Shown: in pieces, positions 19,398 through 24,198 of the stretch | Layout: every line of letters begins with the position of its first letter | How positions within the stretch are numbered: position 1 is the stretch's first letter | Assembly (NCBI GenBank): GCA_032986305.1 | Contig: GCA_032986305.1_3672.1 | DNA length: 64,000 bases | Origin: a phage | Reading direction: 5' to 3' (one strand) | The notes under the pieces: model-generated | The model's input: the letters and a program-made list of their open reading frames with translations, nothing else | Database searches by the model: none | Told to the model about the DNA's origin: nothing | Translations under genes and position numbers: made by a program

Positions 19398-20254
19398 AAG
19401 TTGTAAAACGGGACGGTAGAGAAGAGGTCTATAACGGAATTAAGGTGATCAAGGCGGCAGAGTCCGCCTTACTTGAGTCTGGACATACTGAAGAAGAAGC
19501 TTACCGGATCGCCTGCGCGGTTAATGAAGTTGTTGCTAACAATCTACCAACCGACCAGTGCACGATCTCTGTAAAAAATATCCATATCCTTGTTGAAGAC
19601 GCTCTTATGGATATGGGTTTAAAATGTGCAGCCAGAGAATACATCCAGTATAGGCAGACAAGAGATAATAACAGAGAGGCAGGTGGAAAACTGCTTGCAG
19701 ATATTAGTGGCTTCTTGGATCGCACTTGTGATGAATTTACAAAAGAAAACGCAAATAAGCCTACCAATCATGTACACACTCATCGTGACCTGCTTGCAGG
19801 CATCCTTAGCAAACACCTTGCATCAACACAGATCCTGCCAGACCGTGTCTCAGAAGAGCACAATAAAGGCTTCATCCATGTGCATGATCTTGACTACTTG
19901 ATCAGTCCGTTAACAAACTGTTGTTTGGTAAATTATCCAGATATGTTGGAAAACGGATTCAACATTGGTAACGCCCATGTCAGTAAGCCGAAGTCAATAG
20001 GGGTTGCAACAACAATCCTTAGCCAAATTTCTAGTGCAGTAGCTAGTGCTCAGTATGGGGGTCAGACTATGAGCCATATTGATCATTATCTGGCACAGTA
20101 TGCTGAGGCGACCTATGAGAAGAATCTTAAATTTTGCCAGGAACACTGGTTGCCAGATGCTGAGACTGTTGCAATGCAAATGACAGATAAAGACGTATTT
20201 GACAGCATGCAGACTTTGCTCTATCAAATCAATACGTTAACCTCTGTCAACGGT
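19394..20254 (+). CDS. nrdD: anaerobic ribonucleotide reductase NrdD, exon 1
   Basis: GFIHVHDLDY...TNCCLV...GNAHVSKPKSIGVATT matches recalled T4 NrdD; ends ...NTLTSVNG then in-frame stop. Confidence 0.8.
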
Positions 20255-20511
20255 TAACAAACTGGCCGTTTTAAAACTCTGCTAACCTCAGTATGAGGGG
20301 TCAGCTGATCGCTGGCTAACGGGGAACGCTAAGGCGAAAGCTATGCCAATCCCGTGACTAGCTTCACAAGGAGTGAGGCGGTTGTAACGACTAACCTTTT
20401 GGTGTAGGGATTATGGAAGATTCCGAAACGCAGAGGTCTGATTAAGAATCACACGGTGTGATTTCAGGCAAGAGATAGTCTGGCCTTGTGGAAACATAAG
20501 GGTGGGGACCG
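20255..20511 (+). mobile_element. group I-type intron 1 in nrdD (ORF-less, 257 nt)
   Basis: Interrupts NrdD between SVNG and QTPF; upstream exon ends in U, intron ends in G. Confidence 0.6.
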
Positions 20512-20811: not shown

Positions 20812-21573
20812 AAACTATAACTGCTCATGTAAAATCTATCTAAACGGGGAAACTCCAGAACGGACAATCCCGTGCTAAACGTAACAGAACTCCTGACCAA
20901 GAGGAGTCCTGAAATGAGAAAACAAATTCGTGATTTTGAAGGTTATGAAATTGACGAGATGGGCAATGTTTATTGCACCCGCTACGAAAATGAAAGAATT
21001 ATTCATTCGTGGGAAGAGATAAACACAGGTTACCGTCTTGTTAGGATACGCAAGAACAAAAAGACTGTTTGCCTAAGGGTTCACAGACTTGTTGCTGAAG
21101 CGTTCTTACCAAATCCAGACAATTTACCCTATGTTAAGCACAAAGGGGACAACAGGAAAGATAACAGTGTATACAACCTTGAGTGGGGAGCTTGCCCAGA
21201 CAATACGCAAGAAGGATACAACAACAACTGTTATGCTTTTTACACAAGATGCCACGGTGTGAAAGCCACCAACAAATTAACTGGTGAGGTTTTCCACTTT
21301 AAAAGTCTGAGATGTTGTGCTGATGTTTTAGGAGTGGATAGAAAAAGAATATCTGCTATCCTGAAACGTGGTGCGCCTAATAACTATGATTACGAGTTCT
21401 GTTACGAAATGCCTAACGACTAACCGTGATGAATGTAGCGGTGTAGGGTGTAAGCCGATGACACTCGAAATGGTAGACACACTAAGTGTGAAGATATAGT
21501 CTGATCTGCATGGGAACATGCAGCAGCACGTAAAGGTGCGGGGGTGGACTTGCGAACCACCCTGAACATAATG
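20812..21573 (+). mobile_element. group I-type intron 2 in nrdD carrying HNH endonuclease ORF (762 nt)
   Basis: Exon 2 ends ...TSMG (last nt U); exon 3 resumes CRSFLS; intron ends in G. Confidence 0.6.
20914..21423 (+). CDS. HNH homing endonuclease (intron-encoded)
   Basis: RBS AGGAG 7 nt before ATG; VHRLVAEAFLPNP...HKGDNRKDNSVYNLEW typical of phage HNH endonucleases. Confidence 0.7.
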   Translation: MRKQIRDFEGYEIDEMGNVYCTRYENERIIHSWEEINTGYRLVRIRKNKKTVCLRVHRLVAEAFLPNPDNLPYVKHKGDNRKDNSVYNLEWGACPDNTQEGYNNNCYAFYTRCHGVKATNKLTGEVFHFKSLRCCADVLGVDRKRISAILKRGAPNNYDYEFCYEMPND

Positions 21574-22536
21574 TGTAGAAGTTTCTTATCGAAATATAGC
21601 GACCCTGTAACAGGCGAGGAGAAATACCTTGGCAGATTTAACTTAGGCGTTGTTAGCCTTAACCTGCCAATGATTGCGGCAAAAGCCAAGACGGAAGGTG
21701 TTGATTTCTTTGCAGTTCTTGACGAATACTTGGATCTTGCATACGAGGCTCACCTTGTAAGGGTTAATCGTCTAAAAGGAACAAAGGCAGGGCAGAACCC
21801 CATCATGTGGTGTGAAGGCGCTCTTGCTCGCCTGGATCCTGAAGAGAGTGTTGATAAACTCTTCTATGACGGGTACGCTTCCATCAGTATTGGGTATATT
21901 GGTGTGTATGAAACCTGTCAGATTTTGGGTAGAGAGGGTGACAAGGCTTTAGCTCTTGGAATCCTTCAGCACATGAGAGATGCTTGTGAGCGATACAAGA
22001 AGGAAAGTAGACTAGCGTTTAGCTTGTACGGCACTCCTTCTGAGAGTCTATGCTATAAAGCTGCAACCTGTCTGGATCGTGAATATCCGGAAGTGTTGAA
22101 GCACGAGCATGAATATCTCACCAACAGTTTCCATCAGCCAGTATGGATAAATAGCTCTCCTTTTGATAAGTGGGAGTATGAGGAAGGTTTTGCTATGATC
22201 TCCTCTGGTGGCAACATCGGATACGTAGAAACACCTAACCTGAAAAACAACCTGGATGCTTTAGAGGCTCTTGTTGACTTCGGGTATAAACATATTATGT
22301 ACTTCGGTATAAACCAGCCTGTTGACCAATGCTTCAAGTGCGGTTTCCAGGGAGAATTTAAAGCCTCTCCAAGAGGTTTTATATGCCCTTGTTGTGGAAA
22401 CCATGAGGAGGGAACGATCAGTGTAATTAGACGTGTGTCTGGATACCTTTCCAGTCCTAACTCCCGTCCTTACAATAAAGGTAAGCAAGCGGAAGTTATA
22501 GAACGGGTTAAGCACTATGGAAGTTGTAGTTGCTGA
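21574..22536 (+). CDS. nrdD: NrdD exon 3 (glycyl-radical domain)
   Basis: C-terminal Zn site CPCCG and glycyl radical motif RRVSGYL. Confidence 0.8.
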   Translation, partial: CRSFLSKYSDPVTGEEKYLGRFNLGVVSLNLPMIAAKAKTEGVDFFAVLDEYLDLAYEAHLVRVNRLKGTKAGQNPIMWCEGALARLDPEESVDKLFYDGYASISIGYIGVYETCQILGREGDKALALGILQHMRDACERYKKESRLAFSLYGTPSESLCYKAATCLDREYPEVLKHEHEYLTNSFHQPVWINSSPFDKWEYEEGFAMISSGGNIGYVETPNLKNNLDALEALVDFGYKHIMYFGINQPVDQCFKCGFQGEFKASPRGFICPCCGNHEEGTISVIRRVSGYLSSPNSRPYNKGKQAEVIERVKHYGSCSC

Positions 22537-22602
22537 TACTTGACAGAAGCCACAAGGATGTGGCATACTTGGCTAATCTATGAGAACCAAGAGGGATCAA
22601 AG

Positions 22603-23559
22603 ATGCCTAGAGGAAAACAACTTACAACTGAAGAATTTACAAAAAGAGCTAGAGAAGTACATGGCGATAAATATGACTATTCAAAAACCGTATATAAAAC
22701 TGCTAAAAGTAAGGTTGTAATTGTATGCCCTGTTCATGGTGAGTTTACGCAGATCGCTGGACATCATATCCTTGACGGTAGTGGGTGTCCTAAGTGTGGT
22801 AGAGTGCCAGTAGGCAATAAGCTTAGAAACGATTCTAGTGATATTATCAAAAAATTTGTAAAAATCCACGGTGACACCTATGATTATTCTAAGGTTGAAT
22901 ATGTTAACTATAAAACTCCTGTAAAAATTGTATGCCCTGAGCACGGAGTGTTCTTGCAATCCCCATCTAACCATTTGAAAGGCCAAGGGTGCCCTGAGTG
23001 TAGTAAACTCATTAGCGCAGCAAAAAGGAATAAAGGCCCTGAATTCATAGAAAGAGCCAAAGAAATCCATGGCGATAAATATGACTACTCTTTTGTAGAT
23101 TATATGACTTGCGAAGATAAGGTAGAGATAATCTGCAACACTTGTGGAAATCACTTCACCCAGACACCTTCTTGCCACCTGTCTGGTCGTGGATGCCCTA
23201 AATGTGCCAAAAACGGTTTCTTATCTCACAACTATGGGAAGCTTTACCTCATGGTTGATAACTTAGAAGCGCCAACACTTATGAAGATTGGTGTGAGCGT
23301 CAATGTAGAAGCGAGGAAGGGAAGGATATTAAGAGCATCCAAGAAGGCTGGTGCAGGTATTTATGATCTCCACATAGTAAAAACATGGGGCGGATCGACT
23401 GAAAACATGCTGAGTGTAGAAAAATCTGTGCATGAAGCCTTCAATAAGTATAAAATAAACTTCTCTAAAGTATTTAGTGGAAGCACTGAATTCTTTCACT
23501 ACAGACCTGAAGTGTTTAGCATAGTGGAAGCAGTATACAAAGAGATCTGTGGTAAATGA
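22603..23559 (+). CDS. T5orf172/GIY-YIG-like protein with three tandem Zn-binding modules (free-standing homing endonuclease candidate)
   Basis: Three repeats of HGDxYDYS...C..HG.F.Q....HL.G.GCP.C, then KLYLMVDN...KIGVS...R core. Confidence 0.55.
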   Translation: MPRGKQLTTEEFTKRAREVHGDKYDYSKTVYKTAKSKVVIVCPVHGEFTQIAGHHILDGSGCPKCGRVPVGNKLRNDSSDIIKKFVKIHGDTYDYSKVEYVNYKTPVKIVCPEHGVFLQSPSNHLKGQGCPECSKLISAAKRNKGPEFIERAKEIHGDKYDYSFVDYMTCEDKVEIICNTCGNHFTQTPSCHLSGRGCPKCAKNGFLSHNYGKLYLMVDNLEAPTLMKIGVSVNVEARKGRILRASKKAGAGIYDLHIVKTWGGSTENMLSVEKSVHEAFNKYKINFSKVFSGSTEFFHYRPEVFSIVEAVYKEICGK

Positions 23560-23611
23560 TCGTAGAAAGATACACATGTCTTAAATATGCTATTAACTAA
23601 GGAGGTGCAGT

Positions 23612-23728
23612 ATGTCATCGGGTATCTATAAAATCTGCAAGTGCGGTTGTCATTGTAATCTTCGTTGGTGCAAGGCACTGGACGATTTTATTTGGCATTG
23701 CCCTAAATGTGATGCGGAGTATCTATGA
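23612..23728 (+). CDS. small Cys-rich protein (zinc-ribbon-like)
   Basis: 38 aa with RBS AAGGAGGT; CKCGCHC...CPKC; ATGA overlap with nrdG. Confidence 0.3.
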   Translation: MSSGIYKICKCGCHCNLRWCKALDDFIWHCPKCDAEYL

Positions 23729-24198
23729 ATATTGCCGGATACACAGAAATATCTTACACCGAAGGGCCAGGTATTAGAACTGCCTTATGGGTATCTGGGT
23801 GCCCACACGCTTGCCCTGGTTGCTTTAATCAGGCATTTTGGTCAAAAGATAAGGGGAGAGAGTTTACTGAAGAAGACTTGCAAAAAATCTTGTCAGATTT
23901 AGATAACCCGTCTGTGTGCGGTATCTCTCTGCTGGGTGGAGAACCCTTAGCATACTATAATGAGCCAGATATTATTAGCCTGATGGAGAAAATTAAGGAA
24001 AAATTTGGTGACAAGAAAACTATTCTTGTATATACTGGGTTCACATTTGACCATATCTCTAGTGATGTTCTTAAACTGGCTGATATCATCATTGACGGTA
24101 AGTATGTAAAAGATTTACCAACCAAGAAACCGTTCCGAGGTAGTGATAACCAAAGAATGTTTAAAAAAGTATCAGGCGGTTGGGTTCAGGTAGACTAG
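23725..24198 (+). CDS. nrdG: anaerobic RNR activating protein (radical SAM)
   Basis: CPHACPGC cluster; directly downstream of nrdD. Confidence 0.75.
   Translation: MNIAGYTEISYTEGPGIRTALWVSGCPHACPGCFNQAFWSKDKGREFTEEDLQKILSDLDNPSVCGISLLGGEPLAYYNEPDIISLMEKIKEKFGDKKTILVYTGFTFDHISSDVLKLADIIIDGKYVKDLPTKKPFRGSDNQRMFKKVSGGWVQVD

Follow-up and report, generated by a model that had tools for sequence, protein, structure and literature searches.

A probable T5orf172-type homing endonuclease gene with three predicted zinc-finger modules between nrdD and nrdG of a Vequintavirus

Introduction

To our knowledge, no T5orf172 enzyme has so far been shown to home, and nuclease activity has been demonstrated for Odn only. 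Genes of this type were described as homing endonuclease genes (HEGs) in ICP1 and other phages by Barth, Dunham and Seed (2023; PMC10448857), who reported that 87% of T5orf172 HEGs carry CapR, DUF723 or DUF4379 fingers, often repeated, that ribonucleotide reductase (RNR) genes occur in 33% of T5orf172 HEG neighbourhoods and that the HEGs lie at boundaries of genetic exchange. Module shuffling was described in the same work for ICP1 gp174 and for genes of phage Helene. ICP1 gp174 and gp165, Vibrio phage Helene and T5-like phages provide examples of an N-terminal zinc-finger array joined to a C-terminal T5orf172 domain, which is also the arrangement of the protein described here. A related zinc-finger module is found in the PLE protein CapR, a capsid-operon repressor that consists of a single module without a nuclease domain and in which the four zinc-ligand cysteines are needed for DNA binding (Netter et al.; PMC8096241). 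In Odn (ICP1 gp88), the substitution E180A abolishes cleavage and leaves the protein dead both in vitro and in vivo (PMC8263062). The main text of Barth, Dunham and Seed (2023; PMC10448857) makes no mention of Vequintavirus, and we likewise found none of such genes in the Vequintavirus-related literature examined.

We analysed a 64,000-nt stretch of DNA (the window) from a Vequintavirus (an rV5-like coliphage), in which an ORF on the plus strand (22603..23559) had been predicted to encode a free-standing homing endonuclease with a triplicated zinc-binding module. The gene is probably a free-standing HEG of the T5orf172 branch of the GIY-YIG superfamily. It fits the description given by Barth, Dunham and Seed (2023) in every tested respect and, since the gene type was described in 2023, represents a clear example rather than a discovery and no new kind of system. 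The present gene and the published HEGs are alike in being free-standing beside essential genes, in lying at exchange boundaries and in gaining or losing modules by recombination between repeats (PMC10448857). They differ in lineage, which here is Vequintavirus, and in location, as the present gene has a site of its own between an nrdD-proximal promoter and a 38-aa ORF.

Gene and genomic setting

The ORF is intact, with 318 codons, and its 318-aa product (allele A) shows 100% amino-acid identity over 318 aa to BDU13544 of phage phiWec189. The start codon is likely to be ATG 22603, which is favoured because the homologues begin at an aligned M-x-(R/K)-L-T-T-E-E-F. Two longer starts (TTG 22540 and ATG 22558) were rejected because they fall within the promoter described below and M1 aligns with the first residue of the homologues; a longer version of 333 aa, annotated in phiWec189 and P0001, likewise has its start inside the promoter. 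The original placement of the gene between nrdD and nrdG is borne out, and the genes described here are all on the plus strand. Upstream is the last exon of nrdD (21544..22536; Pfam NRDD and Gly_radical), with its stop codon ending at 22536. Downstream, the insert is followed by a conserved Cys-rich ORF of 38 aa (23612..23728; PHROG 20137, 4.6e-30), the 3' end of which overlaps the start of nrdG (23725..24198; Pfam Fer4_12 and Radical_SAM), the gene of the anaerobic RNR activase. The sequence of the 38-aa product is MSSGIYKICKCGCHCNLRWCKALDDFIWHCPKCDAEYL; PHROG 20137 is labelled 'ribonucleotide reductase', and the ORF is annotated in relatives, in which it is also often left out.

A σ70-like promoter (22540..22569, plus strand; TTGACA-N18-CATACT with an upstream TG), which matches at 10/12 positions in a promoter scan, is located just 3' of the nrdD stop codon. 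This promoter is resident: TTGACA-N18-CATAYT is kept in all of the empty-site relatives compared, and the same site is annotated as a predicted promoter in the record of phage Gotham. It now stands directly 5' of the inserted gene, and a search for terminator-like sites from the gene to the ORFs that follow gave none, so that the insert would be read from this promoter and transcription could run on into nrdG. Three minus-strand ORFs (22681..23178, 23329..23577 and 22261..22566) have no significant family match and were set aside as chance ORFs. No paralogue of the gene was found elsewhere in the 64,000-nt window.

Two group I introns (20254–20510 and 20812–21581) divide nrdD itself into three parts; they match Rfam RF00028 with E values of 1.6e-4 and 2.4e-6, both under the gathering score. 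The second intron holds an HNH/NUMOD homing endonuclease ORF (20872..21423). Among relatives, phiWec189 has neither intron, AlexBoehm has the first only and navn has both.

Zinc-finger modules

The N-terminal part of the protein contains three tandem modules: module 1 (residues 6–69; 22618..22809), module 2 (residues 75–138; 22825..23016) and module 3 (residues 142–205; 23026..23217). Each contains four predicted zinc ligands in two pairs with the pattern C-x2-[H/C]-x16-17-C-x2-C: Cys42, His45, Cys62 and Cys65 in module 1, Cys111, His114, Cys130 and Cys133 in module 2 and Cys178, Cys181, Cys198 and Cys201 in module 3. The modules are 45–53% identical in pairs at the amino-acid level, with local alignment scores of 147–153 compared with ∼24 ± 5 for shuffled sequences (z = 26–29), and the repeat is therefore real. 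Its period is 67–69 aa (an α-helix followed by a zinc knuckle) rather than the approximately 50 aa first proposed. The motif HGDxYDYS recurs as predicted, at residues 20, 89 and 156, and the expected CxxH pair is present in the first two modules; the third has CxxC instead. Since the modules are only 51–58% identical to each other at the DNA level, the triplication is ancient. In the AlphaFold2 model, which was built on an alignment of 12 sequences, module 1 has a pLDDT of ∼85–88.

Pfam assigns the modules to three entries. DUF723 (4.7e-10; 39.7 bits against a cut-off of 20.9) matches best in module 2 (residues 97–134) and DUF4379, a 'probable treble clef zinc finger' (2.3e-9; 37.8 bits against a cut-off of 24.5), matches best in module 3 (residues 170–203), while CapR (7e-5; 23.3 bits) is recognized in module 1 (residues 18–66) slightly under its cut-off of 24.2. 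Together, the Pfam matches, the four-ligand sets and the repeat statistics speak for zinc-binding modules, as had been suggested, and all three are predicted to bind both zinc and DNA. The further suggestion that the repeats could form a modular DNA-recognition array agrees with published work on such fingers (PMC8096241, PMC10448857) and, by analogy, is likely to apply here. CapR was described with CxxC…CxC (PMC8096241), whereas the two fullest modules of the present protein have CxxH…CxxC.

Module 3 of allele A appears, from sequence comparison, to be a chimera. This reading as a fusion is based on the absence from allele A of one module of ∼204 nt that is found in allele C before the nuclease domain; between module 3 and the nuclease domain the alignment of the two alleles contains a gap, with blastn offsets of 25 nt versus 229 nt.

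Many metagenomic proteins (among P0002–P0120) have long arrays of the same DUF723/DUF4379 module but lack a T5orf172 domain. Some of them have a Vsr-like domain (PF04480) instead, and the module array is thus joined to other nuclease types as well.

Nuclease domain

The C-terminal domain (residues 211–316; 23233..23550, plus strand) belongs to the T5orf172/MUG113 group of the GIY-YIG superfamily. Profile searches gave matches above the gathering cut-offs over residues 215–304 for both MUG113 (PF13455; 2e-6; 28.6 bits against 22.3) and T5orf172 (PF10544; 9e-6; 26.6 bits against 20; clan GIY-YIG), and PHROG 681 ('endonuclease') matches the protein end to end (1e-67). The core KLYLMVDN…KIGVS…R that had been singled out as T5orf172-like is located at residues 213–238. 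In the AlphaFold2 model (mean pLDDT 82.8), the C-terminal domain has a pLDDT of ∼90 and displays the β–β–α–β–α topology of the GIY-YIG core; the low pTM of 0.41 is no surprise in a beads-on-a-string arrangement of domains. A phmmer search against PDB sequences gave no match, and when the nuclease domain by itself was used in a word-indexed protein search, only two matches were obtained, too few to deepen the alignment.

The present domain is homologous to that of Odn, with 29% identity over the aligned C-terminal region. Tyr215, Lys228, Gly230, Arg238 and Glu273 align with Tyr125, Lys138, Gly140, Arg148 and Glu180 of Odn, so that the Tyr, the Lys-x-Gly, the Arg and the position of the inactivating E180A substitution are all conserved. 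These five residues are invariant across all of the alleles examined, in which His277 and Glu296 are also kept. Tyr215 (codon 23245–23247), Arg238 (23314–23316) and Glu273 (23419–23421) are candidate catalytic residues on the basis of this alignment. The canonical YIG is replaced by Lys228-Ile-Gly230, and there is no His/Tyr in helix 1 after Arg238. Substitution of Lys for the second Tyr and the absence of the helix-1 His/Tyr are typical of T5orf172 proteins and are common to the active nuclease Odn (PMC8263062); the deviations thus argue against canonical GIY-YIG membership and not against the T5orf172 branch. The T4-type enzymes SegA–G and I-TevI have the opposite domain order to the present protein, in which the nuclease is C-terminal, and they bind DNA by NUMOD or helix–turn–helix elements, whereas the present protein has tandem zinc fingers and a Lys in place of the YIG Tyr.

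Insertion site

Comparison with the BASEL phage AlexBoehm (blastn break points and junction alignments) delimits an inserted segment of 1032 bp (22568..23599, plus strand), which stands in place of ∼20 bp of the empty site (AlexBoehm L002, 4307–4326). The left junction is at the −10 element of the promoter and the right junction is just 5' of the Shine–Dalgarno sequence of the 38-aa ORF. The site was surveyed in 60 Vequintavirus records, a sample spread over the 121 that match the empty-site region, with spot checks of individual loci. Two of the 60 were uninformative; among the remaining 58 the site is empty in 47 (35 with a plain span and 12 with another segment of ∼390 bp before nrdG) and filled in 11. 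At a fixed position between conserved genes, the insert is thus present in some close relatives and absent from others, a polymorphism characteristic of HEGs. Lack of any T5orf172 similarity and universal presence in relatives had been named beforehand as the findings that would count against the original prediction; the protein has this similarity and the gene is far from universal. Carrier-specific flank SNPs that might mark the target or confer immunity were sought and none were found other than two promoter positions unique to allele A; the other flank variants of the carriers occur in empty-site phages as well. No iteron-like repeats were found in the empty site.

The ∼390-bp segment is located between the 38-aa ORF and nrdG in 16 of the 58 sampled relatives and is not present in the window. 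In phage ime (L006, 1357–1740) it contains a 78-aa ORF annotated as a 'putative minor capsid protein'. It constitutes a second polymorphic insertion in the nrdD–nrdG operon.

Alleles at the site

Allele A is rare, which weighs against homing: besides the window, it is carried by one GenBank phage (phiWec189, in the record of which its product is named 'hypothetical protein') and by one Logan metagenome contig (L014). Each of the three copies has an intact reading frame. The same site is occupied by at least four diverged alleles, overall 47–52% identical to allele A at the amino-acid level. Allele B (navn type; ∼52% identical) is found in about 20 relatives and alleles C and C2 (nom, WalterGehring, SophiaRose and O157 typing phage 14; ∼47% identical) in a few. 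The homologues in this intergenic site include navn_83, nom_106, ECTP14_02315 and the genes of SophiaRose and WalterGehring, the last two of which are labelled in GenBank as 'putative GIY-YIG nuclease family protein' and 'putative homing endonuclease', respectively. Alleles A, C and C2 have the left junction in common; that of allele B (navn) lies inside a replaced 3' end of nrdD, which alters the C-terminus of NrdD.

Between alleles, the gene alone is 68–79% identical at the DNA level in a patchy manner, compared with ∼90–97% for the flanking phage genes, and the alleles thus did not diverge in place. The nuclease domains are 56–68% identical in amino-acid sequence between alleles, with dN/dS values of 0.08–0.24 at saturated dS (≥1), and this domain is under purifying selection. 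An apparent DNA identity of ∼90% for the nuclease domain between alleles was discarded as inflated by downstream nrdG sequence, the value being 68–76% when the comparison is restricted to the gene. The zinc modules vary between alleles in both number (three to four) and type, some being of a second type.

About 20 GenBank records of 'Campylobacter phage' (MG0656xx), the host labels of which look doubtful, are ∼95% identical to E. coli rV5-like phages over the region and have these homing endonuclease alleles as well.

Shared tract

The window and phiWec189 have in common a tract of 1751 bp (22393..24143), which comprises the gene with 210 bp upstream and 584 bp downstream and contains a single mismatch, which is synonymous (position 23289). 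To the left of the tract the two phages diverge by 14% and to its right by 2.3%; outside it on either side of the gene there are 2–27 differences per 100 bp. Their backbones also differ in nrdD, which is uninterrupted in phiWec189 and contains the two introns in the window. The third carrier, L014, matches the window over 22435–23858 (1424 bp) with three mismatches, and just to the left of this stretch the two differ at ∼50 positions within a 140-bp block (∼36% divergent). The flank comparison also took in empty-site phages and carriers of other alleles; these other sampled relatives have 7–18 differences from the window on the left (168 bp) and 10–59 on the right (501 bp).

The near-identical tracts of the three carriers are thus embedded in flanks that are 2–36% divergent, as expected for co-conversion. 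The occurrence of one such tract in three backbones indicates that the gene travels with a few hundred base pairs of flank into different backgrounds. This pattern is consistent with homing with co-conversion and is what homing predicts; it could also have arisen by ordinary recombination between phages rather than by nuclease-driven conversion. Together with the presence/absence polymorphism at a fixed site, a near-identical tract that travels with the gene supports the prediction that it is likely to be a free-standing homing endonuclease gene.

The C-terminal zinc ribbon of NrdD is encoded by a block (22293–22434) that occurs in at least three haplotypes with up to ∼36% DNA divergence. In a comparison of 14 sequences, no other has the version found in the window, VDQCFKCGFQGEFKASPRGFICPCCGNHEEGT. 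This block adjoins the left edge of the gene-linked tract and might represent either a target region or a boundary of recombination.

Functional interpretation

We propose that transcription of the gene would start at the resident promoter in the nrdD–nrdG interval and that the three N-terminal CapR/DUF723/DUF4379-type modules, arranged like beads on a string, may jointly recognize a long DNA site. This site would be in or beside the nrdD–nrdG junction of gene-free relatives infecting the same cell, and the C-terminal T5orf172 domain, with Tyr215, Arg238 and Glu273 as its candidate catalytic residues, would cut nearby. Recombinational repair from the HEG-carrying genome would then copy the gene, together with a few hundred base pairs of nrdD/nrdG flank, into the cut genome. 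As ∼20 bp at the insertion point are replaced by the insert, a carrier would plausibly be protected from its own cutting. Cleavage, the target site and the homing event are what we infer from sequence; the computed support consists of the architecture, the GIY-YIG fold, the catalytic positions, the site polymorphism, the alleles, the purifying selection and the linked tract.

The protein might instead be a nuclease of competition or exclusion that resembles Odn and cuts the DNA of competitors (phage, satellite or host), the gene itself not homing, but we consider this improbable. Odn, a T5orf172 enzyme with demonstrated activity, does work as a competition nuclease (PMC8263062), its catalytic residues align with the present protein, and the modular T5orf172 family has been co-opted repeatedly in phage–satellite conflicts (PMC10448857). 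However, Odn is targeted by a satellite-derived RepA_N domain and destroys the satellite replication origin, whereas the present protein has three zinc fingers, of the CapR/DUF723 types typical of putative HEGs, and behaves like a mobile insert. The fixed site, the several alleles and the linked tract are predictions of homing that are not needed for defence. Neither PADLOC nor NCBIfam gave a meaningful match, and the reading as a defence system was therefore dropped.

Similarly little weight attaches to the view that the element is domesticated or decaying, in which case it would no longer cut and would only bind DNA to regulate targets such as the adjacent promoter and nrdG, or would persist as a neutral remnant. 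The gene is directly 3' of a promoter that also serves the 38-aa ORF and nrdG, CapR demonstrates that a zinc finger of this kind can repress (PMC8096241), with autorepression by I-TevI as a named parallel, and allele A is one module short of allele C. This view is nevertheless at odds with the intact reading frame of the three copies, the retention of Tyr215, Lys228, Gly230, Arg238, Glu273, His277 and Glu296 in all alleles, the low dN/dS of the nuclease domain and the very presence of this domain, which CapR lacks. Finally, a role as an accessory of the anaerobic RNR, for example as a zinc-dependent NrdD/NrdG cofactor, for which only the position between nrdD and nrdG and the Cys/His-rich modules speak, is effectively refuted by the presence/absence data, as the gene is missing from ∼80% of the sampled close relatives with intact nrdD and nrdG; its homologues moreover occur in many unrelated phage contexts and its domains are of nuclease and DNA-binding types.

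Implications

If the gene is a homing endonuclease gene, the nrdD–nrdG junction of Vequintaviruses could, as a possible but rather unlikely extension, be a site of HEG competition and re-targeting. The basis for this is that the alleles, of which there are at least four and which diverged long ago, combine one nuclease domain with reshuffled zinc-finger arrays; they may replace each other or follow changes in the target sequence, for which the hypervariable nrdD block (22293–22434) is a candidate. In a variant of this proposal, binding at the adjacent promoter would also regulate nrdG. If competition and re-targeting do take place, the module array would be a naturally reprogrammable DNA-recognition code.

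For the annotation of these phages, the present result is an improvement, as allele A is a 'hypothetical protein' in phiWec189. The locus provides a well delimited example of a T5orf172 HEG in a common group of E. coli phages. Since isolates with an empty site (such as the BASEL phage AlexBoehm) and several alleles exist, homing by a T5orf172 enzyme is directly testable here, and the allelic series, in which one nuclease domain is combined with different finger arrays, could reveal how tandem modules read DNA.
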